DNA of 64,000 nucleotides from NCBI GenBank assembly GCA_937625935.1, contig OW569359.1, positions 310,001-374,000 on the forward strand. The letters are read 5' to 3'. Under the pieces are notes generated by a model. The model was given only the letters and a program-made list of their open reading frames with translations, made no database searches and was not told where the DNA came from. Origin of the DNA: Tetramitus jugosus (taxonomy: Eukaryota; Protista; Heterolobosea). The position numbers and the translations under genes were made by a program. This document shows positions 31,575 to 57,185 of this stretch, in pieces (the stretch's first letter is position 1; every line of letters starts with the position of its first letter).

Positions 31575-31618
31575 TTGATGCTCAGATTCAACTTATAATT
31601 ATACCATTCTAATCTGCA

Positions 31619-33189
31619 TTCTTAACAGGTTGAAGGTGTTGAGACTGGGGCCAGCTCAGGTTGCCAGGGTCGTGAACACTTGTATTCACCCAATCTTTCT
31701 CTATGCATCGGAGTTTACCAACTGGCCAAAAAGGTGGCTTAACGAGGTAAATGGCATGGGACGTAAAGCTGTGAAGTACGGATCAAGAGCCTTGAAGAGG
31801 TACCCGTCGGCACTTCTCGCTATCGGCCGGGAAAGTGGTGGAATTGGACTGTGCGAGTTCAAGGAGTCCCTCACCACTAGGATTGCCGCGTTCATATTCG
31901 GAATGCTACAAGGGAAGAGAGACGCGGAAGCGCGTACACTGTTGTTGGATACGCTTGATGATGTCAAGCAAAATCACCTACTCACCCAATTGAGTATCTT
32001 CCAATCCTGCAACAGGCTGGATCAAGTTAAGAAATCATACTTGGTTTGGTGTGCAAAGCTCCTACATGAATCCAACATCACCATCGGTGATGCATCTCTG
32101 CATGAGTGTCAAGGATGCAATGTAGCTTTTCACCTCCCCTTGAGTGAAGCTAGAGTTCTCAAGGCAAACGGAGTACACAGAAATGAACAGCTATATCAAG
32201 AAGGCAGCATCATGTCTTATGAGAAAGCTAAAAGTCTCTACGGTCTAAAAGGCTTGGGACCAAAGAAATACCGACACGTACAGTTCTATATGGAACTGTC
32301 GGGCGCTCCTTGCGCCCGGGTGAATATACCAATGACCGAAATCGTTCACGAACTCTTCATCGATGGAGTCCGAACCGTGGATATCCATGCTAAGAGCCAC
32401 CTGGCTAACTTCCATCGACATAAAAGAGAGAAGGAGGTCTTGAGAAACAGTACGTGGTGGCTTGATGCAGAACTCACAAAGTGGAGTGGGTGGAATACAT
32501 TTCTGAAGTGTCCCTTTGGCCTCGACAGAAGAGAACTTTGGTTTTACCATCAGGTGAGGAGTGGCACCTTGCATACTCTTTCAGTGATGCAGAGTTTATA
32601 TGGTGGTTTTCGTGGCACGACGTGTACTTGTTGTGGAGAAGAAGATGATACAATCATTCATCTCCTAGTTGAGTGTTCATCCGCACAAGAGGCCAGAAAG
32701 AGAATGTGTATGTCATTGAGCGATAGACTCAACAAATTAAGGCTGCCAAAAGACACAAAGGTGGAAGTCTGGTTCGACAGTTACTTGTACTGTAATGGTA
32801 GCTTGATCAAAAGAAATGCTGCCATGTCTTCACATGATATTTTGGCTGGTCTGATGGGGAAGGAAGTAGAGGCAAGGGAGGACATTCTCAATGCTCTCAT
32901 CAAGACGGGATGCAAAAAGAAGATCGCAGAAAAAAGGACTGCGAGTGTAATCGACTGCACCAAGAGAGAGTGTGTTAAGGAGCTGCACAAGCTGTTCATT
33001 AGGTCTAAGGAGAGGTGGAGGGAAACGATGCTCTGCACCGTGCCGGTGCAGAGCAACACAACAACTACCAGTCCCCATGGACTTGACAGGGCAAGGGAGT
33101 GACCTAGCACTCTGCACCGTGCCGGTGCAGAGCAGCATCACTCCCAGTAACAAGGTGAAATGAATAAAGAGGCAACTCATGTTGTATGG

Positions 33190-33228
<39 letters not shown>
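31619..33228 (+). mobile_element. 5'-truncated L1-like retrotransposon (subfamily 1), poly(A) tail, 15-16-bp TSD
   Basis: Open ORF2 C-terminal part (31630-33102) with CTCC...HLLVEC zinc finger; ~39-nt poly(A) 33190-33228; TSD (a)ccattctaatctgca at 31603-31618 and 33228-33243. Confidence 0.93.
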
Positions 33229-33230
<2 letters not shown>

Positions 33231-33250
33231 ATTCTAATCTGCAGGTGGTG

Positions 33251-35371
33251 GGAGGAAGTTCCGTGATATTAGAGAGAAACTCTCGATTATCAGAGGGGTG
33301 ATTGACTCGGCCAACCGGCATGACAAACAACTGTATCTGTTGTTAACCGACATCTCTAAAGCCTTCGATTCGGTGCCACATAATGCAATCGAAGCGGTGT
33401 ATAGGTTCTTTGGTTTCCCGGAAGGAATTGTAAGACTTGTGAGTGGAATGGTTAGAGACAATTTTGCGCGAGTGCTTACGTCATCCTTGTCACGGAGGTT
33501 CCATATAGGTAAGGGAACGAGACAGGGTGATTCCCTCTCACCAACAACATATGTGCTGGTACATCAAACAGTGCTGATGTATGTTAACAAAAGAATGGAT
33601 GGATACAGGGCTATGTCACAAAGGCTGTGGAATGCTGCATATGTAGATGACTGCAACTTGTTCGCTGAGTCCAGAGCAGACATAGAAAGAGCTGCAGAAG
33701 CGATGTCCTCAGTTCTCGGATCACTTAGGATGACCATGCATCCTGACAAGCTGGAACTGTATGTGAGAAAGTCGGAAGACGACAATTGTCATGACATAGC
33801 GGTGAATGATAATTTGGTAAAAGCGCGAAATCGGAGAGAAGTGTTCAGAGCTCTAGGTCTGTTCACCAATCTTCAGGGTGATACTAAGAAACCGTGAGCA
33901 AGCTTGGCAGAAGGCTCAAAGGGTGGTTGTCAGGCTGAAGTTGATGAAACTGACATCTAGACAAGTGAGCAGAGTTGTCAACACTTGCATTCACCCGATA
34001 TTCACATATGCCTCTGAGTTCACAGACTGGTCAGCAGAATGGTTTGATAAAGTAAATTTGCTGGGCAGAAGTCTAGTGAGGCATGGATCTACTGCTATGC
34101 CGCGATTTCCAGTGGATCTTCTCTCAATAGGAGACGAAAAGGGGTTGATGGGCTTGAGGGACATCGAGGAGACCATCACGACCCGTACTTCGTGGTTCGT
34201 GTACTCGATGATAATTGGGAAGAGGGACACCGAGGCTAGACAACTGTTTCTTGGCACGCTTGAGGAAATCAAGCAAACACAAACATTCCAAAATGAGAAT
34301 GTATTCCAGTCAAGAAACAGGCTTGAATTTGTCAAGCACTCCTACCTCAAGTGGTGTGCATGCAGAATGCACAAGCATGAAATACGTGTCACCAAAACTA
34401 ATCCCTGTGATAGTTGTTGGTTGGCCAGGTATGTACCAAGTGCAATTCTCAAGAAGCTCTACAAGGCAGGTATCACAAGCCGTGAGCAACTAATGGTGGA
34501 CGATCACCCACTGTGTCTGAAGGAATTTAAACATATTTTTCCCTCCTGCAAGGTCGGAGCAATGTCGTTTGAGGTGCTGAAAGTGTTAATATCCCAAATG
34601 AGTGGGTGTGGATGCGAAGGGAAGAGGTCCATCGAAGGTGCAGAGCCGGACTTGTACAAAGGAAATCTGCATGTGGAAAGTAGATCGCATCTACAGTCGC
34701 TGTTTGATCAAATACCCCATGGTATAGACAGGAAGCTGGAATGGTTTCATGCACAGGTACGCAGTGGAACACTCCACACAGCAGAAGTTGTACAATATCT
34801 ATACAACACTGGTGAGGAACAGATCATGTGCAGCTGGTGTCAGAGTGAGCCCGAAAGTGTGCTACATTGTTTGATCAGGTGTCCAAGGGCCATTATGATT
34901 AGAAGGCAATTGGCTGTGAAAGTGGGGCATGAGCTCAAGAATATGGGAATTCCGGACTCTGCCTACGCCAATGTTTGGTTTGATGAGGTGCGACTGAAGG
35001 AAGGAAAGGTTGTGAGGCAACCAATCAAAAAGTCTAGCCGTGAACTGCTGCAAGGAATGATGGGCATAGAAACGGACGCCATCATGGAGGTCGCTGAGGG
35101 TCTTATGTCTGGAGGAATGAAGAAGCCACTGGCACAGAAGAAAGCCAAAACATATGTGAATAGTGTCAAGAGGAGATGTCTTAAGACTCTCCACCACCTG
35201 TTCACTACAACGAAGGATAAATGTAATCAACGGCCATGACCCTCTCCGAGAATCATTGCCTACCAACTGGTAACTAACCAGGGCCTACGCTCTTCGAGCG
35301 TAGGCAAGTGAATAAGCAAGACAATAAAAAGAGCAACCGAAATGGTTGTATTTAAAAAAAAAAAAAAAAAA
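33251..35371 (+). mobile_element. 5'-truncated L1-like retrotransposon (subfamily 2), one frameshift, poly(A), 12-bp TSD
   Basis: RT motifs DISKAFDSV, GTRQGDSLSP, AYVDD; CSWC...HCLIRC finger; frameshift near 33890; poly(A) 35354-35371; TSD ctgcaggtggtg at 33239-33250 and 35372-35383. Confidence 0.92.
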
Positions 35372-35383
35372 CTGCAGGTGGTG

Positions 35384-35830
35384 ATATGGAACTTATCGGC
35401 AAGCCGTGTGATGAGGCATTTCTTGCAAGCATTCCTCGAGGAGTTCAGAGGGAATTGGTTGTAACGGTGAGGGATGTTAGAATTGACAATCCTAACATCA
35501 GAGAAGGTCTGACGGAAGAGCTTAAGAAGGCTAGAGCTGAAGCAATTGGTACGAACAAGAATTGGTGGTTGGAATCTGAAATGTCGAAGGAAACAACCAC
35601 GAAATGTCAAGCGATCCTCTGAAGGACTGTTAGAGGGACTAATGGGCAAAGAGGGGGACTTTAGGAAAGAACTATTGGATGAAATTGTGCGCTCCGGCAG
35701 GAAACAAAGGGAAGCAGAGAAGGTGATAAGAGGTATGGTGGATTCCATGAAGAGGGCCTGTGTCAAGGCACTTCACAAGTATATTAATTCTGTGGTGAAG
35801 AGGAGTGAAGCACTGCTCAGCACCTGGCCG
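35384..35830 (+). mobile_element. Older, internally deleted 3' fragment of an L1-like element
   Basis: NPNIREGLTEEL...WWLESE and LEGLMGKEGD...SMKRACVKAL match the ORF2 C-terminus of the full-length copy; right boundary approximate. Confidence 0.8.
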
Positions 35831-40689: not shown

Positions 40690-43600
40690 GATAATATTTG
40701 TGAAATCTGGTGTTTAGAGTTTGTGGCAAAGAGAAGTTGTTTGGTGAACGAAGCGTATCCAACAGAAGTGTTCGTTCTTCAGTGTCTCTTTTTCCATGCA
40801 GCATCCCAGCGATGAATGCTGATATCTTGGACGTAAGACTCACTTTGAACTCATTGAGCCTATTCCTCCTTTGTCCCTCTCTACTGATAGCAACATTGAG
40901 GGGAATCTCTTCATGACATTTGATCCATGCTTCATACCTTGCGACCAATGCCTTCTATCTCGTTCATCCACTTCTTTGGCCAGTGTGTGAACTCCTAAGC
41001 GAACAGAAATACAGGATACACGCAAGTGTTAACAATTATGGCTTGGTGATCTAAGTTTTGCATAGAGCAACGAGCTGATGATAGGTACGTTGTGTTCCAA
41101 TGGTTGCCATATTCCAGCATGTTACTGACAAGATTTTTTTAATACAACCATTGCGGTTGCTCACTTTATTATCAATACAATTCGAGCGATGGTTCTTGGT
41201 CGCCTGTTTAATTCCCAATTACGCTCGCAGCATCTTCCTGGCAATTTTTTTTAATACAACCAATGGTTGTGCTGTTTATTCGTTGTTGATTCTCTTTACA
41301 TGATGTAACTGTTTCGTTTATGACGGCAGAATGCCGTCACTGTTGCATTGTTTGTTGCTGGTGCTCGCAGAGCATCAGCAACCAGCCATCTCCTTGGAGC
41401 TGCTTGCGTTTCCACACCTAACATACCTAACATGTATTGTTTCCCTGTCTTCCTTTGCTCGTTAGTTGTGCGCCTTCCGTTGCACTGTTGGTTATAACCA
41501 TATGTCCACACATTGTGACTTGTGCAGTCCCATTGAGCTCAGTTTCACACAACCTCCTTTGTCAGCAAGATGGGAGGCGCACATCCCTATTAAATCTCTG
41601 TCTGGTTAACACATTCCAGATCTGCTTTTTTACCGTAACTTCAAAATTATCCCTGCCCATAAGTATCGGCGGAGCTGCGGTCCTGTGCTCGTGTGTTTCA
41701 TTGCACTACAGTATTTCTAGATCCAAGAGAATGTTCCTGTATCGCCGTGCGCTGATTCCGAAGTTGCCGTGAACTTTGACTAGCTCACTGTGCTTAATCC
41801 ATATACCTTCTCTTCATCAACAAATGCAATTGTTAAATAGTTGTTGTGCATCCGCTCCGCACACCATTTGAGGTAAGTGTGCTTGACCAACTCCAAACTA
41901 TTGTTGACTGAAAGACATTCTCCCTTTGGAAGTTTGTTGAAGCTTGATCTCCTCAAGCGAGTCCAACATTAGCTTGTGAGCTTCGGTGTCACTATTTTCT
42001 CTCATCATCTCCTTGATGAACCAGGCGGTTCTCATAAGAATTGACTGCTCGATTTTGCGCAGACCAAATCCACCATTTTCACTTGTGATCTGCAACAAAT
42101 CAGACGGGCACCGCTTCATTGCAAAAGAACCTTGTTTGATGAGCGCTTTTCACATCTGGTTCACCATAAATGACAAGTTTTTTGTCATTATCGAGCCCTC
42201 TCTTGATAAATGCTTTGGTATTTTTCACACACTTCTCTTTACACTAGGTAACTAGTATGATTGTGGCGGCAAAATGCCGTCACTGTACAATTGTTTTTGT
42301 TGCTGATGCTCGCATCACTTCCTTCTTGATTCCACTCTTCTTGAGCCCTTTTGTCACTTGCTTAACAGCTTGAGTTTCTGCCCCTAACATTTCTATCAAA
42401 TAGTCTTTGCCTGTATTTCTCTGCTCGTTTCATTGTTCGTTTTCCATTGCACCACTGCTAGTTATCAAACCCAATATCGACTTTTGCAGACCCATAGAGG
42501 ATTTTGTGTGAAGTGTTTGGCTTTTGATTTGTGCAACGAACCATTCAAGCTTTCTATCAACCTAAAGGGGCATTTCATAAAGGAGAAGTCTGTTGCACCG
42601 CCCATAACTTCTCTCGACCAATCAGATATCGATACTACCGAGTGAAAACATGCAAGCTCTGCTGTTTTTCTATCACTTCATACTCTTCACCTTTTCGAGT
42701 GCCTGCTCCTTTCGTCTTGTCGTACCAGGCTCTAACTCGGGTACCAGGCTCGTGAAGAAGAGTCCTAATGCCCTGAAAGTTCTTTCACTTCCATTTGCAG
42801 GCACAACAACATTATTAACCGTTATGTTGTGTTCTGATCTACTCTGCCCATCTTCCTGACATAGAGTTCCAATTTGTTTGGGTGCATGCTCAACACTTCA
42901 TTCATTTTGTTTGCAGTCTTCTCAATGGCTTCACTGCTATTGGACATTAGGTTGCAGTCATCCACGTACGCTACATTCCAAATTTATTGCCAGTTGCCAT
43001 GTCGTGAACCAAATTGACAATGTTCTCCGGGGATCCAAAGAACGAATACACTTCCTTAATGGCATTATGGGGAACAGAGTCGAAAGCCTTTGCGATATCA
43101 GTCAGGAGGAGGTACAATTGACCATCATTCCTCTGAACTTTCGCCCTCCCCCTTGAGTGTTCGTAAACAAAGAGGCAGCCTCTGCTGCCTTTGACACTCG
43201 GGCATTGAGTAGCCTTGTGAAGAGCTTCGACAGAGCGCTAAACAGGCATATGGGTCTGTAATTTGAAATATCTTGCGCATCGCCTTTCTTATAGGCAGGA
43301 ACGATCGTGCATTCCTTCCACCTGTTAGGAAACGACCCACTCTCCAGGATATTGTTGAAGAACCGACAGCTCCCAGCTGTAGTCCTGGTAACTTCAACAT
43401 TTCATTGTGGACCCCATCAGGTCCAGGACACTTTTTGTTTCTAAGTATCCGATTGCCTCGCGCACCTCCTCTGTTGTAATCAGCGTGAATTAGAACATCT
43501 TGAGCACTCGGAGGTGGGATAGTCCTGAGATAGGACATGTCCGCCGTTTCCTGTGAAAACGCAGATTCAAAGTAACATGCTTTTTCCCACACTTTCACTA

Positions 43601-44030
43601 TCAGTATGTGTCATGTTTCCTTCATTAACTGTGTTGAGTCTGATGCGGATGGCCTTCTTCGCACTTGCAGCAGAGTAGAATCGTCGGGTTTACAAACTCC
43701 GATGTTCTGGCTGCCCACTCCCACGTTCTGAACTTTTTGTTCCTGGCTCTCTCCCCATGCGGCCTTCCGATCAACTACTCTCAGTGCAATCCATACCGAG
43801 TCCTTGGTTCTCCGTAGTGATAAAACACTTTGAAAGTTCTTTCAGTTGTCTCTCCCCTCACTAGATATCTCAACAACAGTTCTCTGGTGTTCAGTAACAC
43901 GAAGGCTGTTGTTGCCCCTGGTTTCTTTGCTCTTGCGACCAAAATTCTCTATCGACCTATTTCTTGATCAAGCTATTGGTGACATCACATTGCTCGTCAG
44001 GGTCACTCATTCTTTCAACTCGATGTTTTG
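40690..44030 (-). mobile_element. Stack of at least 3-4 degenerate L1-like copies upstream of tRNA-Tyr
   Basis: Fragmented ORF2 homology (GKRDTEERTLLLDTL; KKCPGPDGVHNEMLKL; TDIAKAFDSVPHNA); poly(A)/3' ends at ~41134, ~41245 and ~42178, each next to a copy of the target sequence agcatgttcctgacaag (44031-44047). Confidence 0.85.
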
Positions 44031-44087: not shown

Positions 44088-44160
44088 CCTCTGATAGCTC
44101 AGATGGTAGAGCATGAGACTGTAGATCTTGTGGTCGCGTGTTCGAGTCACGCTCGGAGGA
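44088..44160 (+). tRNA. tRNA-Tyr(GTA), intronless
   Basis: CCTCTGA/TCGGAGG acceptor with C1-G72 and A73, GCTC/GAGC D stem, CTGTAGA loop, GCGTG-TTCGAGT-CACGC, T-run terminator. Confidence 0.9.
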
Positions 44161-44274: not shown

Positions 44275-44558
44275 ATCCCCAAAGAGATCTTAGACTTCAC
44301 TAGACTGAACAAATATATTCTTGATGCTGCGTGTTGTCAAACCGTCATTCTCTCAAAGGAATTCACTGTTGTATTTGGATGATTTCCTTCTGTTCAGCAA
44401 TAGAATATTAAGCACAAAGGCTCCAAGACCAAGTATTGACGCTTGAGAGAAATGGCTTGCCGATCAATGCTTCCAAGTCGGTGTTAGTATCACAACAAGA
44501 GATCACATTCTGTGGTTACTTGTTGCATTTTGGAGAGAACAATGGTGTCTTCACAACG
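44275..44558 (+). mobile_element. Remnant (copy C) of the DIRS-like RT / GIY-YIG element
   Basis: Deleted, near-identical match to RT sequence at 56150-56635 (gagatcttagacttcac..., tatttggatgatttcc..., gcttgccgatcaatgcttccaagtcgg). Confidence 0.88.
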
Positions 44559-44559
44559 T

Positions 44560-44982
44560 TCTCTTGATAGCATTGTGGGGCACAGAGTCGAATGCTTTAG
44601 CAATCAGTTAGCAGTATGTAAAGATGTGAGTCGTTTCTGTTAGCGTGGTCGATAACTCCTTTCACTATTGACAGCTTCTAGTGAATGTCCCTGAACTTTC
44701 GACCACCTCCTTGAGTGTTCGTAAAAAGTGATGCAGCCTATTCTACTTTAGACACTCTCACATTCAACAATCTTGTAAACAACTTTGAGAGTGAGCTAAG
44801 AAGGCATATAGGCCTGTAGTTTTCCAGGTCCTGTGCACTTCCTTTCTTGTAAGCCGGAATGATATTCTTTCCTGGGAACACTCCGCTCACGAGTATATTA
44901 TTGAAAAGGAGCATAGCACTTCTGCAAATTCCATTGAAAATCTCTGTTCTCAGTGCTTGGCATCTTGATGTGCTCGCGTTTT
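44560..44982 (-). mobile_element. Internally deleted L1-like remnant retaining the 5' terminus
   Basis: IIPAYKKGSAQDLENYRPICLLSSLSKLFTRLLNVRVS; begins AAAAACGCGAGCACAT like the full-length copy; 5' junction about 43 nt before the tRNA-Trp stub. Confidence 0.8.
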
Positions 44983-45039
44983 TAAATAAACCGGGCGAGA
45001 ACGAATCCCTGATTTTCTGTGTACGGGGGGTTAGCTCAG
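44983..45039 (+). repeat. tRNA-Trp upstream flank + first 15 nt of the tRNA (stub 1)
   Basis: taaataaaccgggcgagaacgaatccctgattttctgtgtacGGGGGGTTAGCTCAG, nearly identical to 57072-57128. Confidence 0.92.
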
Positions 45040-48000
45040 GTTTATTACATCTCTCTTGGAGCATTGTACAAATGGTTGTTTGGTCAACGCGCTGGCGCGA
45101 ATTCAACCAACCTAACCGAGGGAATAAACTGTTGTTTTTTTTTTGGTGTTTGTCTTTTTTTGTTTTTTTTTTGTTAATGTAACATTTGAGACTCAATATA
45201 CTTGACAACATCAGCTCTTGTTCGATTCACAATCCATCCAGTTATTATTGTTGCTCCCATCTCGACTGATTCTACTGTGGTGTCATACAAAAGTAGACCC
45301 ACATTGTATGCATCTAGAGTGCAATGAGTGTGGAGACTACCTGAGATGTACCTTTCGAACCATGTACGAGGGCATTCAGCGGAGTAAAAAAACACCCGGT
45401 TGATACCAGGAACCGACAGAACAACTAAATGGGTGCGTTCCGGGAGGGGAAGAGTCAGGAATTACGCAGGAGGCCGGTGGACCCCAAACAACGCTCGTTA
45501 TTCAATGTGACTAGCCCCATAATAGAATTTTTTCTTTTTAAAGGGCAAATTTTATTATTTTACAATGGGAGGTCCACCCCCCTTCCGCCCGTTATTTAAA
45601 TGTTGTCTAACCCCAAAAAGTCCGTTATTAGTAATTCCTGACTCTTCCCGAGGGACACTTGTTGCACCATTGACAAAAAGAGAGAAGTATCTTGAGCGGA
45701 CTGGAAGCAATGCATTGGTGTCCAATTGCATCTTCAAACAACGTCCTACGCTTTCCAGGGCAACTTCACGACATATTGAATACTTCCCCGGCGATCAGTT
45801 CATGTCTGAGCCAACTGTGTATAAATCTCTCCCATTTACGACAGTTTCGCAATTCCATCACATCCAAATAAAGTTCCAATACTAACACCTTGCACCTTAG
45901 CTTCTTCAGTCTCTTATGAACATTTCTACTCTGTCCTATTTTTGAGCCGTTGCATTCATTTGATGAGAGCACCTATGTTCTTTAATTGTGGTGCACATTG
46001 ACTGTAATAAAACAGTGAATGTAATTAACATATGATTTAGCTCACCCTCAACACCCAAAGCATCCTTCAGGGTTTTGATATCGTTCACTGGTTTGGGCAA
46101 TTTAATTGTCTCTTTTCCATGACTAAAAATGGATTTAAGCCAAACAGAGTCAATTTCTGGAGGAAACAAAATGTTTTGGATTCTCTTGTCTTCCACGTCA
46201 CGTCCGAACCAATTTAGGGTAGCAATCGCCACTGCCTTATTGTTTATCATCAATATAACCTCATCTCCAGTCTCCAAGTGGTTTAAATAAATATGATTTG
46301 ATTTTTTTTCTTTATTGCTATTATTATTATTGTTATTATTATTGGTACCCGCTAGAGACATGTTTGCACCATCGGTAAGAGCGTGTTCAAGTCGCGACTT
46401 GCGTATCTTCATGGCGCTTGAAGTTTTGGAAAAAAATGGAATTGAAGTTACAAGCTTCATCGACATGAACGGTACTGGCGTCTCCAGAAGTACCACGAAT
46501 TCTGCAACCATATCAACCAATTGGTGGTCGGAAAATCACTCGGGAATGATGGAACATTTTTCCGAAAGTTTCTGCTTCAGTCTATGTTAAGTATTATCGA
46601 GAGAGATTGACGAATACCGAAGGGCTATTTGATGGAGTCATTGTTCAACAAGTAGTAAATTTGTGAACGATCAACTCTCTTTTTTGCACGTTTTGGAGTG
46701 ATGATTGGACTTCTAGAATCACAAATGTAATTACTGTTGTTAGTAAAAAAGTGTCGACATAAAGATCGTATAACTCTTGGTTCGTCATGGGTCGATCAAA
46801 GAGAAACTCGATTATGATGGTGGTGGTGAAAGTGGTGGTGGTGATGATAATCGAGTATTATTGTCACTGTTGGGATCTCGACTTTGTCTTGTTGTATGGC
46901 ATGGTATGGATTTGTAAATGGTGATGAGTGTGGTTGTTGTTGAAGAGGACAAGTTGTCGTTTGATATTATTTGATGTTTTTGTGTTTGTGTGAGTAAAGT
47001 GTTTGAGGAAAATGAAACATACCACAGCACCACACCAAATCGCCATAAATTTTCTTTTTTTCGGTTGTGTCAAAAAACAAAACAACCTCATTGAACAAAC
47101 AAAAGAAAAAAAATTTGTTATTATTGAGTTAACGTGGTAGTGTCTTGTTTTATTTTTTTGTTTTTATATCTTGTTGTTTGTGATGGATTGATGTCATGAT
47201 GGGTTGATGGGATCAACAGAAACAAAAAAACAAACAACAAGAAGTACTTCAACATGTCTAGCGGTCAGTGGCAGACTATAAGTTTTCATTTGCTGAGAGC
47301 ATTGAGTGCAAAGATGGTACAGAGTGCTTTGGGGAGCGTTGACGCCGGAGAGGTGAATGTGACGGTGAGAGAGTCTGAGAGTCATGGATCGAAGCACTTG
47401 TGTGGAGAAAAGATCTGGGGGGACAAGCGAAGAGCCACATAAAGGTACCGCTATAGATCAACCAATTAATGAAGAAAGGTCTGTGCTTACACAAAAAGGG
47501 AAGTGCGCATTGGTTCAACTGAACAGCGCAACACCTAGCACAAACCGTATCAAAGGAAATCAGTGTAGGGGGAAAAAGGGTCCAAAGGTGCTCTCCAAAC
47601 CATATTGGCAAGAACCTTCTGAGATTATCCAAGAGGGAATGACAATCAGGTTCTACAGCAATGAAGAAGAAGTACGCTCCAAGCTTCGTCATTTCATTTT
47701 GAATAAGATTAAGCCTGAGCACGGATGATAGAATCAAGGAGTATGTGGTCAGTGGTGTTCTAATTGAGATTCCAATGGAACAAGCATTGTTTATTGCTTC
47801 CATAGCAATGATTCCTCGTGAAGCAGATGCGACTCGCCCCAGAGAGATCTTGGACTTCACAAAACTGAACAAGTACATTCTTGATGCTGACTGTCGTTTG
47901 CCATCTAGGGGCGATCTGGTCTCGTTGGTGAACAATTACTCATTTGCGGCCTCTGTGGACATCAAGCCTTGCTACACCAACATCAAACTGCATCCAGACT

Positions 48001-48763
48001 ATCCAGCCTACTGTTGTATCAGCTGGAGAAAGAAGGTGTACAAGTTTACGAGTGTTCCCTTTGGAATCAAGTGCGCGCCGGCGTGTTGCCAAACTGTCAC
48101 ATCCTTTCTCTCAAAGGAATCCACTGTTGTTTATTTGGATGATTTCCTTCTGTTCAGCAATAGTGAAGAAGATTTAGCACAAAGGCTCCAAGACCAAGTA
48201 TTGACGCTTGAGAGAAATGGCTTGCCGATCAATGCTTCCAAGTCGGTGTTAGTACCACAACAAGAGATCACATTCTGTGGTTACTTGATGCGTTTTTGGA
48301 GAGAACAAGGGTGTCTTCACAACGGATAAGCACCTCAAAGACCTTTCGTTGTATGTCAAACTCTTGTCGACAAAGGAGAGTATTGACTTGATCACCTGGC
48401 GAAGTTTTGTTGGCAAATACAACTGGTGTCAGGAGGACGAGAGAGTCCATGCAAAGCTTGTTGCACTCATGAATGAGTGCGACAGCTCCACTAACCACAT
48501 TGTGCTCGATCATGTCGCCAGAGCCATGCTCGACAATATGGTCGCCCAATGTTCTCTTCCTTTTAACTATTGATTTTGTGTGGTAGGTGCTTGGTCAGTC
48601 AGGAACGAATTTGTCCTCGTCAATTCGGCTGCTCTAGACAGCTGTAAGTGACAAGGAAGTCAATGGGCCAATAGGGAGTGAGAACAAATTCGTTCTTGAG
48701 TGATGGAGCATCAACTGTTGCAAACAAAACAAAAAAAACAAAAAAAATTACGACTGTTTGTAA
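45040..48763 (+). mobile_element. Copy A of the DIRS-like RT / T5orf172 element (degenerate; right end displaced to 54493-54551 by L1 insertions)
   Basis: Colinear with 54552-57070; RT 47384-48573 with frameshifts; nuclease gene on minus strand broken by a MITE and small deletions; has ~1.07 kb (46021-47088) that copy B lacks. Confidence 0.88.
45447..45649. mobile_element. 203-bp MITE with 19-bp TIRs and 3-bp TSD (PIF/Harbinger-like)
   Basis: TIR GGGAAGAGTCAGGAATTAC / GTAATTCCTGACTCTTCCC, TSD GAG; empty site in copy B (ccgggagggacac at ~54954-54966). Confidence 0.92.
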
Positions 48764-49526
48764 TTTTTTTTTAATACAACAAATGGTGGAGTGGCAGGCC
48801 TACGCAACAGGATTCATTCTCTTCTTGGAATGTTGTTTTGATCCCTTCTTCAGGGATTCGTTGCGAGGGCCTCCACTACCATCTGGAGCACCACTGGTGA
48901 GGTCAGATGGCTCCGTAGTCCTAGCCAGTTGGTAGGACCTACGGAGAGCACCTGACTTGATACTGGCCAACCTGGCCGGGATCTTGTTGGCAGCAGTGTC
49001 ACCAACGGTGACACGTGCTGATCGCTTCTTGTGTTCGTTGAGTTGGGGACTCTGTAACTCACAGTCGGGGTTACTGAGATCCAACTCAACTGGATTTTCT
49101 TCGGTGGTTGTGCTTCTTGCACGGTCCATGATTGCTCGGGCAGCAATCTCTTTCTTGACTTTCTTGAACACCTCGGAGGTGTTCAATACTAGCTCGAGGA
49201 TTGCTCTGTTACGAGCATCCTCATCAATGGTGTTGTTGGTTGGCTCTTGGGTGACCGTAGTTGGAGTGGCGGGATGGGACTCCGGCATGATCGACTCCCA
49301 GTCATCGGTCGTAGACGGAGTCGAAGGTTCGAATTCAGAGATTCGCTCCGGCGTCCTTGGAGACGGGGATGCGAGGGGAATCCGGTTGACGGAAGCCATA
49401 TCTTTTAACACACTGACTTGGTGGCGCAGGTCGTCCACCACAGCCAGTAGCTCTTGGTACATCTTGGTCAGCCTCTTGCTGGCAGCCTTGACCGGATCAC
49501 GTGGGCGTGGAAGGCCTCTGCGTTTT
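48764..49526 (-). mobile_element. Short non-autonomous poly(A) retroelement with a 220-aa ORF (48800-49462)
   Basis: L1-type 5' end AAAACGC, 3' end GTTGTATT-(A)9, short TSD ttgtaa; ORF has a coiled-coil start and an S/T/P-rich body with no RT or APE motifs. Confidence 0.65.
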
Positions 49527-49638
49527 TTGTAAATAAACGGGGCTTTTTTTTTTTTTTTTTTTCCATACAACATTTGTTGCCACTTTATTCTATGCACTAC
49601 AGTGAGACGTGTTGTCGCTCAGAACCGCAGGTTCTGAG

Positions 49639-52600
49639 CTATTGTTCACCTCTCTTCGCTACTGAGTCTTTCCAGACTTTATATAACCGTTTGATGCAAG
49701 ACCTCTTCATTGCATTCACCAGCCTTTTAACCTTTGTTTTCCTCTTCTTGCGACCATACACAACCAGCTCCTTCATCAATACATCCTTCTGATCATCCTC
49801 TTTTCCCATTAACCCTGCTAGGATTTCTTCAGTGGTTCGACTTGGGCTTAGTGATACCAATTTCCCGTCATCGTAAACCACATCATCGAACCATATCTTT
49901 AGCTTGACTGGTCTCATAAACTCCAGCTTGTCCAATTTGGCTTTAAATTCCTCCACCAGTCCTTTCCTTACCCTTTTGGCTTCATCACATTCCACTAGTA
50001 AGTGGCTGATCGTCTCCGGCGCATTCGCACAGTGAGCACACACGACCTCCATCGACGGCTCATACAAGTCACGCAGCACAGTCTTTGTGTGGAGCGTACC
50101 ACTTCTAACTTGATGGTAAAACCACAATTCACTTCTTTCCAGGCCGAACGGACACTTTAGAAATTCATTCCACTCTTTTTCTTGTAGTTCAGCCTCCAAT
50201 CTCCATTCAGACTCTGATTCTATCGATTTTGTCCTCACCTGCACGAAGTGTTCCACGAGACCTTCTCTGACATTTGGGTTGCTCAATGCTTTGTCACCCA
50301 CCGACACTTCCAGAGTGTCATTCAGTGTTCGCTCCCTCCATCTCTTTTCATTACCCTTACCAAGAATTTCCAGGTAAGCCCTTATCCTTGAGTACCTTGC
50401 TGGGCCAATGCCCTTCAACTTGAACTTCATCTTTGCTTCCTCAAACGGGATAACCATTATCCCATCCTCATCGAAGAGTTGGGAGTTTTTGGAAATTCCA
50501 CTTTGAATGAGTAGTTTTGCGTCTCCCGTAGGGAGATGCCACCCAATACTGCATTTCTCACATTCATGATCTCCTTTGGGACCTACTTTAACCTTCGAGC
50601 CATGTAGAAGTTTGGCGCACCAAGACAGGTAAGAGTGTTTGGTCTCACGAAGACGATTGTTGGATTGAAATATGCTCGACCGAACGAGCGTTTGCGATTG
50701 CTTGACATCATCAAGCGTATCCAACAGAAGTGTCCGTGCTTCCGTGTCTCTCTTACCTTGCAGCATCTCCACGACAAAGGCAGAGATCTTAGCCGTCAGA
50801 CTCTCTTTGAATTCATTGAGTCCAATACCTCCTTTGTCCCTCTCCACTGACAGCAGCAAAGAGGGAAACCTTTTCATGGCACTCGATCCATGTTTCACTG
50901 CCTTGCGTCCAATACCCTCGATTTCGTTTAGCCATTTCTTTGGCCAATGGGTAAACTCTGAAGCAAACAAGAATACAGGATGGATACAGGTGTTCACTAT
51001 CCTCGCTGCCTGACTTGGTCCCAGTTTCAGCATCCTCAACCGATTCAGGATTCTCGATACCTTCTGCTTTGCTTGTTTCTTCTGGGCCTCTGTGTCCCCA
51101 TTGAGGTTTGTAAACAGCCCAAGTGCTCTAAAGCCCGTGTGTTTGTCCTTTGCAGTAATCACCTTATCAGCCACTCTGATCGTCACAGGAGCTTCACCCA
51201 CTTTTCTTGCAAAGAACTCCAGCTTGTCTGGGTGCATACTCAGACCAACCCACTTGAGCCCCCTGTACATATCATTAGCCGTCGACTGGATGTCCTGGAG
51301 ATCATCACTGAAAAGGTTACAGTCATCTACGTAAGCTACATTCCAGATTCTCTGGCTCATGGCTTGGTAGCCGCTTGCTCTTAGCTTTGCATACAGCAAC
51401 ACTAGCTGATGGACTATCACATAAGTCGTGGTGGACAATGAGTCCCCTTGCCTCGTGCCTCTGTTGATATCAATCGACCGGGATGTGTGTTGTGTACCGA
51501 CTGTTGCCACATTCGATTCCAACATGTTCCTGACGAGCGTGATGATACCCTCTGGGAAGTTGAAAAACCGGTAGGCAGCAGTGACGGCATTGTGTGGTAC
51601 ACTGTCGAATGCCTTCGAGATGTCGGTAAGCAGAAGATACAACTGCTTATCATTTCTATTTGCGTGATCGATCACTCCTCTAATGATGGACAGCTTTTCT
51701 CTGATGTCACGCATTTTACGACCCCCACCTTGTGTGTTGTTGAATACACACATTTTCTCAGCAGCAGCTGACACTCTTTGGTTAAGCAACCGAGTGAAAA
51801 CCTTTGATAGACCGCTGAGCAGGCATATAGGGCGAAAGTTCCCTATCATCATAGGGCAGCCCTTCTTGTACGCCGGAACTATAACACACCTCTTCCATTC
51901 ACACGGGAATTGCCCGGTCTCTAATATTCTATTGAAGAAAGTCATCAGCGCCTCTGCGAACTCAACTCTATAGTCTCTTTCCTTGGTGTGTCTCAATTTG
52001 AGCATTTCATTGAATATCTTGTCGACCCCCGGTGCCTTACCGTTTCGCAGCCACTTTAAGGATTGCAGCACCTCCTCCAACTTGAACGGGGGAAAAATAT
52101 CCTCCATACTCTCAGTTCTGCATCTCATCTCGTCTAGGAACGTCATGTCTGCAAATTCTTGTTCAAACACCTCCTCAAAGTAATCAGCAGCATGCTCAGC
52201 TACCTTTTCCGGGGCAGTGATCACCTTTTCTCCACTCTTGTAACTCTTGAATCTTAGCCTCAGTGCCTTCTTGCCTGTGGCAGCATTGAAGAAGAATCGG
52301 GGGTCCACGAATTCTGTGGTTCTGGCTTTGTACAACCACTTGGAAAACCTCTTGTTAGCCCTACGGGCTCTTTCAACTTGTACAAGCCCATCGACAATCT
52401 TCAGTGATGCCAAAATACCTCTCAGAGTACAGTCCTCCTTGTACGCCTTGCAAACCCTCATGAGTTTCGGTGAACCGGTGTCATGGGAAGACAGCCGCTC
52501 CACTAAAACCATTCTATCCTTCAGCCAAGGTTTTACTCTGCGGTTGTCAATTCCTCTCGCAATTGGTTTACACTTAGGAAACCTCTTTGCACTTTCCTTT

Positions 52601-53472
52601 AAGATCATAGTGATCCGGTCACATTGTTCATCAACATCCATTTCCGCCATGTTGATTTTATCTAGCTCCTCAACCACCTCTTTAGAGTACTCTATCCACA
52701 TCTTGCTGTCCCTCTTTGGGAACTTGGGCTTTTCTTCCGTGGGCCCTTGTGCCTCCACCTTTGTCCACCATACCTTTACCATCGTAGGTATGTGATCACT
52801 CCTTACCCCATTGGCTGTGTACTTTTCCACATCTCTAACAATGTCAGCGGCTGGTGAATTGCACCAGACTGAGTCGATGCGAGAAGAGAACTCGCCTCTA
52901 AAGAACGTGTGAAAATGGGGTGTGTCTGTAACCGTATTAACATCGCTCAATTGTAACCCTTCCACCATTGCCTTAAAATGGGCACTATTGTCATCTAACC
53001 TTCCAGAGGTCCGCTCAGTACTGTTTATCACTGTATTGTGATCCCCACCAAACAATAGTTTTCCCCTGCATGAGAGCACTCTCAATGCCTCATTGACCAT
53101 CACATAGTGATGTCCGCCTTCAGCTCTTTTGTGAGGTCCGTAATGATTGACCAGGGTGACTCGCAGGTCTCCGCTTGCCACCTCTACAGCCAACAATCTT
53201 TGGTTCGTCAACAGTGTTCTGTACTCTTGAATACTCTCTCTTCTTAATATCGTCATTATTCTGTCATCTGTGTTGGTGTGTATCAACATACACCCGGCAT
53301 ACTCCAGCTGCTTTTCAAAAGTCGCCTTGAACTTTTCGCTCTTGCAACTAGCCTCTTGCAGCATCAGAACATCAATCCTTGGGAGGATCGTCTCCATCAT
53401 GGCAACAACATCGTTTCGTTTCCCTCCTAACCCTCTGATGTTGTACCAAACGACATTGAGTGTCGTACTCAT
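49639..53472 (-). CDS. ORF2: APE endonuclease - reverse transcriptase - CCHC zinc finger
   Basis: WYNIRGL, LMLQE, NHYGP, GGDHN, SRIDSV, SDHIP (APE); KAPGVD, FRPICLL, DISKAFD, GTRQGDSLS, YVDD (RT); CAHC...HLLVEC. Confidence 0.96.
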   Translation of the reverse strand: MSTTLNVVWYNIRGLGGKRNDVVAMMETILPRIDVLMLQEASCKSEKFKATFEKQLEYAGCMLIHTNTDDRIMTILRRESIQEYRTLLTNQRLLAVEVASGDLRVTLVNHYGPHKRAEGGHHYVMVNEALRVLSCRGKLLFGGDHNTVINSTERTSGRLDDNSAHFKAMVEGLQLSDVNTVTDTPHFHTFFRGEFSSRIDSVWCNSPAADIVRDVEKYTANGVRSDHIPTMVKVWWTKVEAQGPTEEKPKFPKRDSKMWIEYSKEVVEELDKINMAEMDVDEQCDRITMILKESAKRFPKCKPIARGIDNRRVKPWLKDRMVLVERLSSHDTGSPKLMRVCKAYKEDCTLRGILASLKIVDGLVQVERARRANKRFSKWLYKARTTEFVDPRFFFNAATGKKALRLRFKSYKSGEKVITAPEKVAEHAADYFEEVFEQEFADMTFLDEMRCRTESMEDIFPPFKLEEVLQSLKWLRNGKAPGVDKIFNEMLKLRHTKERDYRVEFAEALMTFFNRILETGQFPCEWKRCVIVPAYKKGCPMMIGNFRPICLLSGLSKVFTRLLNQRVSAAAEKMCVFNNTQGGGRKMRDIREKLSIIRGVIDHANRNDKQLYLLLTDISKAFDSVPHNAVTAAYRFFNFPEGIITLVRNMLESNVATVGTQHTSRSIDINRGTRQGDSLSTTTYVIVHQLVLLYAKLRASGYQAMSQRIWNVAYVDDCNLFSDDLQDIQSTANDMYRGLKWVGLSMHPDKLEFFARKVGEAPVTIRVADKVITAKDKHTGFRALGLFTNLNGDTEAQKKQAKQKVSRILNRLRMLKLGPSQAARIVNTCIHPVFLFASEFTHWPKKWLNEIEGIGRKAVKHGSSAMKRFPSLLLSVERDKGGIGLNEFKESLTAKISAFVVEMLQGKRDTEARTLLLDTLDDVKQSQTLVRSSIFQSNNRLRETKHSYLSWCAKLLHGSKVKVGPKGDHECEKCSIGWHLPTGDAKLLIQSGISKNSQLFDEDGIMVIPFEEAKMKFKLKGIGPARYSRIRAYLEILGKGNEKRWRERTLNDTLEVSVGDKALSNPNVREGLVEHFVQVRTKSIESESEWRLEAELQEKEWNEFLKCPFGLERSELWFYHQVRSGTLHTKTVLRDLYEPSMEVVCAHCANAPETISHLLVECDEAKRVRKGLVEEFKAKLDKLEFMRPVKLKIWFDDVVYDDGKLVSLSPSRTTEEILAGLMGKEDDQKDVLMKELVVYGRKKRKTKVKRLVNAMKRSCIKRLYKVWKDSVAKRGEQ

Positions 53473-54479
53473 AGCTCACTATGTCCGTGCTCTTGTGGTG
53501 GAACCACACTCTCTTGAGTACTGTTCACTCGAATAGTTCCATTAGGGGAATTAGTCATAATTATCTTCCTTTGTACCTCTTCATCGTCGACTTCCCTAGC
53601 ATCTCGCTTCTTTCCTCTGTTGTTTACAAAATCATCCATTCTCCTCTGACCTTTATCAATCATTAGTTTCCCTCTGTTTTTTATCTGGGCTACTGGTGTG
53701 CTCACCGGATCATCCTCCATCGTTTGCACTGCATTTTGTGGTTCCTCCAGTGTGTCCCTAGGTGTAGTTACTTTCTCTTGTATGGTGCTTTTGTTCGCTC
53801 CATCCAGCTTACTCACCCGAAGTCTCATCTTCATCATTTCCGACTTAAGAAATCGAATTTCTTCCACACTCCTCCTGTAATCATCTAGCATCTTGTTCAT
53901 GTCTCTTTGAAGCTGAGCTACACTTCTCTTCAATAAATCCATTGGTTCGAGTGTTTTGTGAACAAATTTCCTAGTCTTGGTGTTGCCCATGGGTGGCTTT
54001 TCGAGAAGTGCATTCACATAACTAGGGCCTTTGGTGGATACAATGGCTGAGTTCCCTCTTAATTCCACTCTTTGCACGTTATCCCGACCAGCCCAAGTTT
54101 CAATATCTTCCTTGATGATCTTCCCAGCTCCGGAAATTACTACGTCATGTGTCGCTCTCATTCTTCCATTGACACTTGCAGTGGAATCCTTCAACACTTT
54201 TGTGCAGTTGAACCACTGAATGAATTCCCAAACTTTGTCATCTCTGACAATTATCCACGCCTTGTAGCTTTCACCTCTCCTAACTACTTGTACCCTCTCT
54301 ACCCACTCCGAGCAGCCTGCAACTAGTTTGTTTGCTATTGCTTCTGGAGTTACATTGCTGCACCTCCCAGTGACGACTACTTCATCTCTCTTCGTAGCTG
54401 CTTCTTTGCTCATCTTTGTCCATACAACATATTGACTTCTGCGGATCATTACCGCCTGTACTGACGGTCCTTGTGACAT
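53469..54479 (-). CDS. ORF1: putative RNA-binding protein (two RRM-like folds + coiled coil)
   Basis: Directly upstream of ORF2 with an ATGA stop/start overlap; beta-alpha patterns EVVVTG...VERVQVV...KAWIIV and DVVISG...VQRVELRGNSAIVS; heptads LLKRSVAQLQRDMNKML. Confidence 0.75.
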   Translation of the reverse strand: MSQGPSVQAVMIRRSQYVVWTKMSKEAATKRDEVVVTGRCSNVTPEAIANKLVAGCSEWVERVQVVRRGESYKAWIIVRDDKVWEFIQWFNCTKVLKDSTASVNGRMRATHDVVISGAGKIIKEDIETWAGRDNVQRVELRGNSAIVSTKGPSYVNALLEKPPMGNTKTRKFVHKTLEPMDLLKRSVAQLQRDMNKMLDDYRRSVEEIRFLKSEMMKMRLRVSKLDGANKSTIQEKVTTPRDTLEEPQNAVQTMEDDPVSTPVAQIKNRGKLMIDKGQRRMDDFVNNRGKKRDAREVDDEEVQRKIIMTNSPNGTIRVNSTQESVVPPQEHGHSEL

Positions 54480-54492
54480 GTGTTCGCGTTTT

Positions 54493-54551
54493 TTGTAAAT
54501 AAACGGGGCGAGAACGAACCCCTACCTTTCTGTGTCCGGGGGGTTAGCTCA
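54493..54551 (+). repeat. tRNA-Trp upstream flank + first 14 nt of the tRNA (stub 2)
   Basis: ttgtaaataaacggggcgagaacgaacccctacctttctgtgtccGGGGGGTTAGCTCA. Confidence 0.92.
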
Positions 54552-54681
54552 TGTTTATTGTATCTCTCTTGGAGCATTGTACAAATGGTTGTTTGGTCAA
54601 CGCGCTGGCGCGAATTCAACCTGGATAAACTGTTTTTGGGTTTTTTTTTTTTTGGTGTTTGTTTTTTTTTTTTTTTTTTTG

Positions 54682-55383
54682 TTAATGTAACATTTGAGAC
54701 TCAATATACTTGACAACATCAGCTCTTGTTCGATTCACAATCCACCCAGTTATTATTGTTGCTCCCATCTCCTCGACTACTGATTCTACTGTGGTGTCAT
54801 ACACAAGTAGACCCACATTGTATGCATCTAGAGTGCAATGAGTGTGGAGACTACCTGAGATGTACCTTTCGAACCATGTTCGAGGGCATTCAGCGGAGTA
54901 CAATAACACCCGGTTGATCCCAGGAACCGACAGAACAACTAAATGGGTGCGTTCCGGGAGGGACACTTGTTGCACACCATTGACAAAAAGAGAGAAGTAC
55001 CTTGAGCGGACTGGAAGCAATGCATTGGTGTCCAATTGCATCTTCAAACAACGTCCTACGCTTTCCAGGGCAACTTCACGACATATGTTGAATACTTCCC
55101 CGGCGATCAGTTCATGTCTGAGCCAACTGTGTATAAATCTCTCCCATTTACGACAGTTTCGCAATTCCATCACATCCAAATAAAGTTCCAATACTAACAC
55201 CTTGCACCTTAGCTTCTTCAGTCTCTTATGAACATTTCTGCTCTGTCCTATTTTTGAGCCGTTACATTCATTTGATGAGAGCACATAAATGCACTCCCCT
55301 ATGTTCTTTAATTGTGCATAATTTGCCACCTTACCATTGACTGTAATAAAACACTGAATCATTGAACAAACAAAAGAAAACAA
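54682..55383 (-). CDS. T5orf172/MUG113-type GIY-YIG nuclease domain protein (N-terminal exon deleted in this copy)
   Basis: CIYVLS...KIGQSRNVHKRLKKL...WERFIHSWL...GEVF fits the T5orf172 pattern IY..KIG.S.N..RL..L..E..IH..L..GE.F. Confidence 0.78.
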   Translation of the reverse strand: MFSFVCSMIQCFITVNGKVANYAQLKNIGECIYVLSSNECNGSKIGQSRNVHKRLKKLRCKVLVLELYLDVMELRNCRKWERFIHSWLRHELIAGEVFNICREVALESVGRCLKMQLDTNALLPVRSRYFSLFVNGVQQVSLPERTHLVVLSVPGINRVLLYSAECPRTWFERYISGSLHTHCTLDAYNVGLLVYDTTVESVVEEMGATIITGWIVNRTRADVVKYIESQMLH

Positions 55384-55544
55384 ATAGTTATTATTGAGTT
55401 AACGTGGTAGTGTCTTGTTTTATTTTTTTGTTTTTATAGCTTGTTGTTTGTGATGGATTGATGTCATGATGGGTCGAGGTTCAGTGTATCTATATAGGTT
55501 GAGGATCAACAGAAACAAAAACAAACAACAAGAAGTACTTCAAC

Positions 55545-56892
55545 ATGTCTAAAGGTCAGTGGCAGACTATAAGTTTTCATTTGCTGAGAGCATTGAGTGC
55601 AATGATGGAAGTACAGAGTGCTTTGGGGAGCGTTGACGCCGGAGAGGTGAATGTTGGCTCCGATATGACGGTGAGAGAGTGTCTGAGAGTCATGGATCGA
55701 AGCACTTGTGTGGAGAAAAGATCTGGGGAGACAAGCGAAGAGCCACATAAAGGTACCGCTACTATGGATCAACCAATTAATGAAGAAAGGTCTGTGCTTG
55801 CACAAAAAGGGAAATGCGCATTGGTTCAACTGAACAGCGCAACACCTAGCACAAACCGTGTCAAAGGAAATCAGCGTAGGGGGAAAAAGGGTCCAAAGGT
55901 GCTCTACAAACCATATTGGCAAGAACCTTCTGAGATTATCCAAGAGGGAATGACAATCAGGTTCTACAGCAATGAAGAAGAAGTACGCTCCAAGCTTCGT
56001 CATTTCATTTTGAATAAGATTAAGCCTGAGCACGGATGATAGAATCAAGGAGTATGTGGTCAGTGGTGTTCTAATTGAGATTCCAATGGAACAAGCATTG
56101 TTTATTGCTTCCATAGCAATGATTCCTCGTGAAGCAGATGCGACTCGCCCCAGAGAGATCTTGGACTTCACAAAACTGAACAAGTACATTCTTGATGCTG
56201 ACTGTCGTTTGCCATCTAGGGGCGATCTGGTCTCGTTGGTGAACAATTACTCCTTTGCGGCCTCTGTGGACATCAAATCTTGCTACACCAACATCAAACT
56301 GCATCCAGACTATCAAACCTACTGTTGTATCAGCTGGAGAAAGAAGGTGTACAAGTTCACGCGTGTTCCCTTTGGAATCAAGTGTGCGCCGGCGTGTTGC
56401 CAAACTGTCACATCCTTTCTCTCAAAGGAATCCACTGTTGTTTATTTGGATGATTTCCTTCTGTTCAGCAATAGTGAAGAAGATCTAGCACAAAGGCTCC
56501 AAGACCAAGTATTGACGCTTGAGAGAAATGGATTGCCGATCAATGCTTCCAAGTCGGTGTTAGTACCACAACAAGAGATCGCATTCTGTGGTTACTTGTT
56601 GCGCTTTGGAGAGAACAAGGGTGTCTTCACAACGGATAAGCACCTCAAAGACCTTTCGTTGTATGTCAAGCTCTTGTCGACAAAGGAGAGCATTGACTTG
56701 ATCACCTGGCGAAGTTTTGTTGGCAAGTACAACTGGTGTCGAGCCAGACAAGAGGACGAGAGAGTCCATGCAAAGCTTGTTGCACTCATGAATGAGTGCG
56801 ACAGCTCCACTAACCACATTGTGCTCGATCATGTCGCCAGAGCCATGCTCGACAATATGGTCGCACAATGTTCTCTTCCTTTTAACTATTGA
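55545..56892 (+). CDS. DIRS-like reverse transcriptase split over two frames (55545-56039 and 56014-56892), no RNase H
   Basis: W..SEIIQEGMTIRF; then GVLIEI, REILDFTKLNKYI, SVDIKSCY, YKFTRVPFGIKCAP, VYLDDFL, INASKSVLVPQQEIAFCG, RSFVGKYNW, stop ~45 aa later. Confidence 0.85.
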
Positions 56893-57113
56893 TTTTGTGT
56901 GGTAGGTGCTTGGTCAGTCAAGAACGAATTTGTCCTCGTCAATGCGGCTGCTCTTGACAGCTGTAAGTGACAAGGAAGTCAATGGGCCAAGAGGGAGTGA
57001 GAACAAATTCGTTCTTGAGTGATGGAGCATCAACTGTTGCAAAACAAAACAAAAAAAATTACGACTGGTTGTAAATAAACCGGGCGAGAACGAATCCCTG
57101 ATTTTCTGTGTCC

Positions 57114-57185
57114 GGGGGGTTAGCTCAGCGGTAGAGCATCTGACTCCAGATCAGCAGGTCGGGCGTTCAATTCGCTCACTCCTCA
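57114..57185 (+). tRNA. tRNA-Trp(CCA)
   Basis: GGGGGGT/ACTCCTC acceptor (two G-U pairs), GCTC/GAGC, CTGA-CTCCAGA-TCAG, GGGCG-TTCAATT-CGCTC, TTTTT at ~57195. Confidence 0.92.

Follow-up and report, generated by a model that had tools for sequence, protein, structure and literature searches.

Known tRNA-linked elements of eukaryotes either insert beside the tRNA gene, as TRE5 does, or split it, as Dada does. TRE5-A is described as inserting ~45-50 bp upstream of tRNA genes with its 5′ end toward the gene, and as requiring a functional B box (PMC3159450). Among nucleases, the GIY-YIG protein SegB of phage T4 is reported to cut tRNA genes and to leave 2-nt overhangs (PMC2330249). SegB is also mentioned in a review of 2026, according to which Dada elements are not reported to have any homing-type nuclease (PMC13565253). 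The element described here sits inside the tRNA gene, leaves that gene complete and swaps its upstream flank for element DNA. It encodes a reverse transcriptase (RT) and a GIY-YIG nuclease; a full-text search of mostly open-access literature returned no description of such a pair at tRNA genes.

The window, the whole 64,000-nt stretch of DNA analysed, is gene-dense eukaryotic DNA. A stack of insertions spans the interval from a tRNA-Tyr gene (44088-44160) to a tRNA-Trp gene (57114-57185) and contains, in order, an element fragment (copy C), an L1 relic, a flank (F1) with a tRNA-Trp stub, element copy A, a short L1-like insert, a full-length L1, a second flank (F2) with a stub, element copy B, a third flank (F3) and the intact tRNA-Trp gene. 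Copy C (44277-44558, + strand), the oldest, is a deleted RT fragment that shares 85-90% identity with the RTs of A and B and has an in-frame stop. The L1 relic (44560-44981, − strand), detected by tblastn with ORF2, adjoins F1 with its 5′ end at about −43, and this junction was also seen in contigs of the public run X1. Sequence comparison places F1 and a stub of tRNA-Trp +1 to +15 (45025-45039) at 44983-45039 (+ strand). In copy A (45040-48756) the RT is frameshifted and the nuclease gene is broken by two inserts. The first, of 200 bp, is MITE-like (45449-45650) with a perfect 17-bp terminal inverted repeat; the second, of 1.07 kb (46020-47088), lies just past the start codon of the nuclease gene, and its ORFs had no Pfam match.

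The right flank of A is interrupted twice. The short L1-like insert (48757-49532, − strand) has a poly-A tail, one ORF, a nick at −40 and a 7-bp target-site duplication (TSD) at 48757-48763 and 49526-49532; its body (48764-49525), which is non-autonomous, gave no tblastn match to ORF1 of the neighbouring L1. The full-length L1 (49527-54509, − strand), TRE5-like in position and orientation, has an ORF1 (53469-54480) and an ORF2 (49639-53475) that are both open, and is bounded by identical 17-bp TSDs covering −45 to −29 of the F2 stub. F2, the right end of A, and its stub of tRNA-Trp +1 to +14 (54538-54551) occupy 54493-54551 (+ strand), as established by comparison and by a junction in a public contig. 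Copy B follows and ends in F3 (57069-57113, + strand; it may reach back to 57059), the flank that we assign to the element. F3 leads into the target, the intact tRNA-Trp(CCA) gene (57114-57185, + strand; ARAGORN; 61 bits in Rfam).

The three flanks were aligned in register (F1 44980-45024, F2 54493-54537, F3 57069-57113), with positions numbered from tRNA +1. F2 stood apart from F1 and F3 alike by five differences, at −33 (G versus C), −19 (C versus T) and −14/−13/−12 (ACC versus GAT). F1 and F3 differed at 2 of 60 positions, −43, which lies beside an L1 junction, and −2. These data bear out the preliminary description of this DNA, which had the flanks on the two sides of B differing and the right one resembling F1. 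It was also correct that the G variant is present in both TSD copies of the full-length L1: the two copies (49527-49543 and 54493-54509) match at 17/17 positions, or 18/18 with one more T, and both have G at −33. Since GAT/ACC forms one cluster, the five differences between F2 and F3 amount to three events, in line with the 6.6% synonymous divergence of the A and B RT cores (P of ≥3 events in 45 = 0.58). The flank diverges about as fast as the synonymous sites of the adjacent RT, and the divergence between F2 and F3 is not what a fresh TSD would give. One public contig of organism A contains the F2 junction too, in its expected surroundings and with 5 differences relative to F3. The contig speaks against an assembly error; it is not independent biology, because its run may be the window's own source. 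A simple tandem duplication of one copy was rejected, as it predicts a middle flank of the F1/F3 type and the RT cores differ at the synonymous sites given above. F1, now cut off by the L1 relic, probably belonged to copy C.

The L1s provide a relative chronology, because each marks a time at which its flank preceded a functional tRNA gene; the stack thereby keeps a record of insertion order. L1 nicks lie at −29 (full-length L1) and −40 (short insert) upstream of tRNA-Trp and, for two L1s, at −30 and −40 upstream of tRNA-Ser; in an X1 contig a further poly-A tail lies within an element flank, at −41. The neighbouring L1s resemble TRE5-A in lying at a fixed distance upstream of tRNA genes with the 5′ end facing the gene, a likeness of behaviour. 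Elsewhere in the window, a stack of 5′-truncated L1 copies (31575-35809) lies upstream of the tRNA-Ser gene, their 5′ ends facing it and their TSD nicks being those at −30 and −40; decayed L1 ORF2 fragments in the same orientation lie upstream of tRNA-Tyr (40751-43768), and a further weak L1 fragment upstream of tRNA-Gly (10629-10979). In the tRNA-Trp stubs we found no B-box match above chance. Because this L1 family nicks upstream of tRNA genes, TRE5-A is described as needing the B box (PMC3159450) and the stubs have none above chance, B likely arrived after a young, intact L1, as had been proposed. By inference, F1 and F2 would each have preceded an intact gene when their L1s arrived, with A and B coming later. 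The two open ORFs and identical TSDs of the L1 at F2 indicate that B is recent. A TSD copy of F2 should then still match F2, and F3 does not.

We then compared this locus with public contigs. Of the 15 runs listed, four were compared with the whole element and two with the right junction, X7 to X15 holding small shares; for the right junction, 16 of 32 matching pieces and 10 of 11 loose ends were listed. Contig depth serves as a rough guide and not as a copy number, and upstream and downstream flanks cannot be phased across the 72-bp gene. The records listed for X1 include three flank variants, with 0, 5 and 6 differences, that each lead into an intact tRNA-Trp start. Their depths sum to 87 (47.1+23.8+16.4), against 34.9 at the downstream flank of the window and 246 at the tRNA core; on this rough scale of contig depth, flank-bearing intact tRNA-Trp starts account for ~2.5 of the ~7 single-copy units. 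An unrelated flank adjoins at least one tRNA-Trp gene (an X1 record with 255 nt of flank). In X4, a run from another study, one record runs from an element end through an F3-type flank into the tRNA; in another, the element end is diverged and is followed by a flank piece with 10 differences. Among the records listed, the F2 letter at −12 recurs in three others, and two downstream flanks besides that of the window were seen. Two flank-bearing records (X1 from 57059; record 11 of X4) begin in sequence other than the element end; their two junction motifs are absent from the window, and they may represent truncated insertions or the host locus of flank capture. The three X1 variants at tRNA-Trp starts and the joint divergence in X4 speak for the expectation that unrelated tRNA loci share the flank; the two odd-start records blur this picture. 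No left junction at a naive locus, with an outermost stub beside a locus-specific flank, came to light among the records listed. Read depth was higher over the RT half of the element than over its left end, which would fit 5′ truncation, but contig depth cannot rank the parts.

These observations bear on whether the repeated flank is a TSD. A true 59-bp duplication, blurred by gene conversion, with the shared flanks arising from duplicated host tRNA loci, would resemble the long TSD of SLACS/CRE elements in spliced-leader genes. The near-identity of F1 and F3 would suit it, and the low synonymous divergence in the N-terminal part of the RT hints at conversion between A and B; moreover, for CRE-clade elements the reported insertion point in small RNA genes is nt 11/12 (PMC5814959). 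F2, the flank behind which B inserted, nevertheless differs from F3, flank-bearing intact genes amount to ~2.5 loci against a single window-type downstream flank, and the flank diverges together with the element end in X4. We regard this explanation as improbable. The 45-55-bp flank therefore belongs to the element, as its right end, and travels with it rather than being a TSD: B likely came after a young L1 and yet F3 differs from F2, flank variants precede other tRNA-Trp genes, and the flank in X4 has diverged along with its element.

The preliminary description had assigned both the flank and the tRNA 5′ segment to the element. The first half of that proposal is upheld by the order of insertion and by the other loci; for the second half, carriage of tRNA +1 to +14 gives the same picture as a 14-bp TSD, because these bases are identical in every copy. 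It is possible, though we favour it considerably less than carriage, that +1 to +13/14 is an ordinary short TSD, produced by staggered nicks at about −1 and +14 and target-primed reverse transcription, with the flank as the element terminus; the duplication, and no carried sequence, would then restore the gene. A nick exactly at the tRNA 5′ end would then be needed in all three insertions, and an RT of the LTR/DIRS class would be expected to need a base-paired primer. A stagger of 2 nt, as reported for SegB (PMC2330249), is also too short to make a 14-bp TSD. The short duplication nonetheless predicts the same anatomy as a cut in the A box; the GIY-YIG nuclease of Penelope-like elements is described as making TSDs of variable length (PMC8557442), and Dada as duplicating tRNA nt 8-13 at the same A-box site (PMC8869645).

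Copy B, of ~2.5 kb, has two divergent genes, for a nuclease on the − strand and for an RVT_1 protein on the + strand, both starting near the middle. Its left end (54552-54681, + strand) starts with a 9-nt motif that also occurs 2 nt behind the tRNA-Asn gene of the relative L001. The nuclease gene, open in B (54682-55362, − strand), encodes a T5orf172/MUG113 protein of the GIY-YIG superfamily (Pfam E 1e-7); homologs (2 of 252 candidates) were 52-61% identical. This assignment is a Pfam domain match only, the predicted fold having a pLDDT of 33, and a search against solved structures gave one chance match (E 0.68). T5orf172 genes are described as common in polinton-like viruses (PMC12220804). 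The RT gene (55545-56892, + strand; N-part 55545-56039, core 56014-56892) is DIRS-like, stops after the thumb without an RNase H domain and has a frameshift in common with A. The interval from the RT stop to the flank holds a stable 3′ hairpin, with arms at 56902-56937 and 56999-57034, and behind it an A-rich tract; together they occupy 56902-57058 (+ strand). The hairpin scores on both strands (z −6.9 on + and −5.7 on −), so it weakly supports plus-strand polarity. Within the flank, at 57086-57095, a 9-nt match to the hairpin's left arm might base-pair with the right arm. The left end of B and the flank fold no better than shuffled sequences. Among the ORFs of B, Pfam revealed no integrase, recombinase or DDE transposase, and there was no gag-like ORF; Rfam, searched to E 5, gave no ribozyme in B. 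The only direct repeat found in B was the 59-bp one, and apart from the hairpin and A/T tracts no complementary repeats, terminal or internal, were seen. The left end has a weak likeness to the rest of tRNA-Trp, but a reading of the stub plus left end as a decayed whole tRNA had borderline support (p 0.04-0.11, no Rfam match, no B box above chance) and is not adopted.

In a word-based search, 7 of 633 candidates were RT homologs, 40-60% identical. The RTs of B, P0001, P0002, P0004 and P0007 all end at one motif right after the thumb; the absence of RNase H is hence a trait of the family and not the product of decay. Sister RTs of ~315 aa (P0022, P0040, P0056) seemingly also end after the thumb, possibly forming a wider clade that lacks RNase H. 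The best matches among solved structures were RTs of the LTR/caulimovirus class, such as 8r0s, 4ol8 and Ty3, and the nearest RT sequences carry DIRS- or gypsy-type motifs, from which their group labels (DIRS and others) are taken. In a quick tree of 51 of 155 RT cores, with no PLE RT included, the family formed its own clade (SH-aLRT 98) far from gypsy polyproteins; the deeper branches had values of 86-88, with DIRS groups labelled by the same motifs. Relative to P0016 (90-95% identical), A and B have a common RT frameshift, a form also present in an X1 contig. Purifying selection acts on the RT core, in which A and B differ by 12 synonymous and 6 nonsynonymous changes over 281 codons (Fisher p 4e-5). 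For both genes, the codon-position identities between B and L001 are typical of such selection. The N-part of the RT (55545-56036), unlike the core, has 1 synonymous and 7 nonsynonymous changes between A and B, a pattern that hints that the copies may be mosaics.

How, then, might B have entered the tRNA-Trp gene? The explanation that we place at about an even chance combines the element's own flank with a cut at the A box of tRNA-Trp and a copied-in template that rebuilds the gene from the element copy. It starts from observations, namely the anatomy, the stacking, the flank shared among tRNA-Trp genes and two conserved genes, and infers every catalytic step. The GIY-YIG protein would cut tRNA-Trp genes at the A box (+13/+15). 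The template would be a plus-strand read-through RNA running through the flank into the tRNA gene; its 3′ hairpin would be recognised by the RT, and its tRNA part would anneal to the cut bottom strand and prime cDNA synthesis. This would leave a 5′ stub to the left of the insertion and, to its right, a complete gene behind a new flank. The rebuilt gene would work and remain a target, so that copies would stack from C to A to B, with L1s entering each new flank in between. A and B, with their common frameshift, would have been moved by RT supplied in trans. An A-box cut with RNA copying is favoured by the hairpin at the 3′ end, the conservation of the RT, the 2-nt overhang reported for SegB and the expected need for a paired primer.

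The frameshifted RT in B, which is late and has an open nuclease gene, would suit homing from DNA, in which the cut tRNA-Trp gene is repaired from another element locus through the stub (or flank and stub) and the 3′ part of the tRNA, with no role for RT. Such homing, described for SegB (PMC2330249), also predicts a flank derived from the donor and stacking at flank-bearing loci. It would leave unexplained why the RT is kept across lineages at 40-60% identity and under purifying selection between A and B, and a naive locus would offer only 14 bp of homology on the left; we consider it unlikely. The likeness of the RT to those of DIRS-type elements, which are thought to integrate circles by tyrosine recombinase, raises a further alternative, the Campbell-type integration of a circular cDNA whose attP consists of the flank and the tRNA 5′ core, with a tyrosine recombinase in trans and the GIY-YIG protein as accessory. 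Divergent ORFs would suit a circular template; however, neither B nor the available part of L001 encodes a recombinase, and the complementary repeats found in B are limited to the hairpin and A/T tracts. This possibility appears very remote. The term 'attP-style', used earlier for the carried segment, is apt for the anatomy, but the unit encodes no recombinase in B or in the available part of L001. A cut at the A box followed by RNA copying remains our preferred reading.

A search for related loci yielded 2 of 44 pattern matches in metagenome contigs, 0/65 and 0/23 in viral contigs, and 0/6 and 0/20 in prokaryote genomes. The first, L001, has an RT 60% identical to that of B and the same divergent two-gene layout. 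Its left end lies directly behind an intact tRNA-Asn gene (relative 461-567, 33 nt behind), beside a host Nuf2 gene, and the element opens with the 9-nt left-end motif of B; the contig stops short of the right end. In its available 3′ region there was no strong hairpin, in its available ORFs no recombinase was evident, and the 3′ non-coding ends of B and L001 had no significant likeness (shuffle p 0.31). The second, L002, is a partial element without a tRNA gene. tRNA linkage appears in the window and in L001 alike, with differing geometry, and L001 speaks against a universal stub rule.

The gene combination fits none of the tested families (Penelope-like, DIRS/Ngaro, Dada, CRE/R2), and we propose the element as a candidate new kind of tRNA-targeting retroelement. 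Dada is described as inserting at tRNA nt 8-13 (TAGCTC) in the A box, and the stubs here end at +14/+15, after TAGCTC; Dada, however, encodes a DDE transposase, makes a 6-7-bp TSD and leaves the tRNA gene split (PMC3706591, PMC8869645). T4 SegB offers a parallel as a free-standing GIY-YIG nuclease reported to cut tRNA genes and to spread together with them, but it is described as a phage gene without an RT, recognising a T-loop motif and homing as DNA (PMC2330249). CRE/SLACS/CZAR and R2 elements also have a fixed insertion base within a multicopy gene for a small RNA (PMC5814959, PMC12278014). They differ in combining a non-LTR RT and an RLE nuclease in one protein, and their duplication is described as a TSD and not as a carried flank; B has no ORF joining a non-LTR RT to an RLE or APE nuclease. 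The likeness to DIRS/Ngaro lies in the DIRS-type motifs that many of the nearest labelled RTs carry. As those elements are described (PMC5006619, PMC6681497), B differs from them in having no recombinase, RNase H, gag-like ORF, ITR/ICR or split direct repeats.

The EN+ Penelope-like elements share the combination of RT and GIY-YIG nuclease, tandem arrays and presumed target-primed insertion (PMC8557442). Their RT is telomerase-like, whereas that of the present element belongs to the DIRS/LTR class, and they have one ORF where B and L001 have separate ORFs on opposite strands. The present element further differs by its T5orf172-type nuclease and its fixed tRNA site, and neither a pLTR nor a hammerhead was found in B. 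Tentatively, and with somewhat less than even confidence, these differences may define a new order of eukaryotic retroelement, in which a DIRS-derived RT would have lost RNase H and exchanged its recombinase for a homing-type GIY-YIG nuclease. Such an element would retro-home into tRNA genes and rebuild every such gene out of a promoter-proximal flank and a tRNA 5′ end that it brings along, constituting a natural safe-harbour insertion system of ~2.5 kb and a eukaryotic counterpart of prophage attP repair. If so, a DIRS-type RT would work without RNase H and recombinase, the system would be very compact and sequence-specific, and RT and GIY-YIG nuclease would have been paired a second time, independently of the Penelope-like elements.
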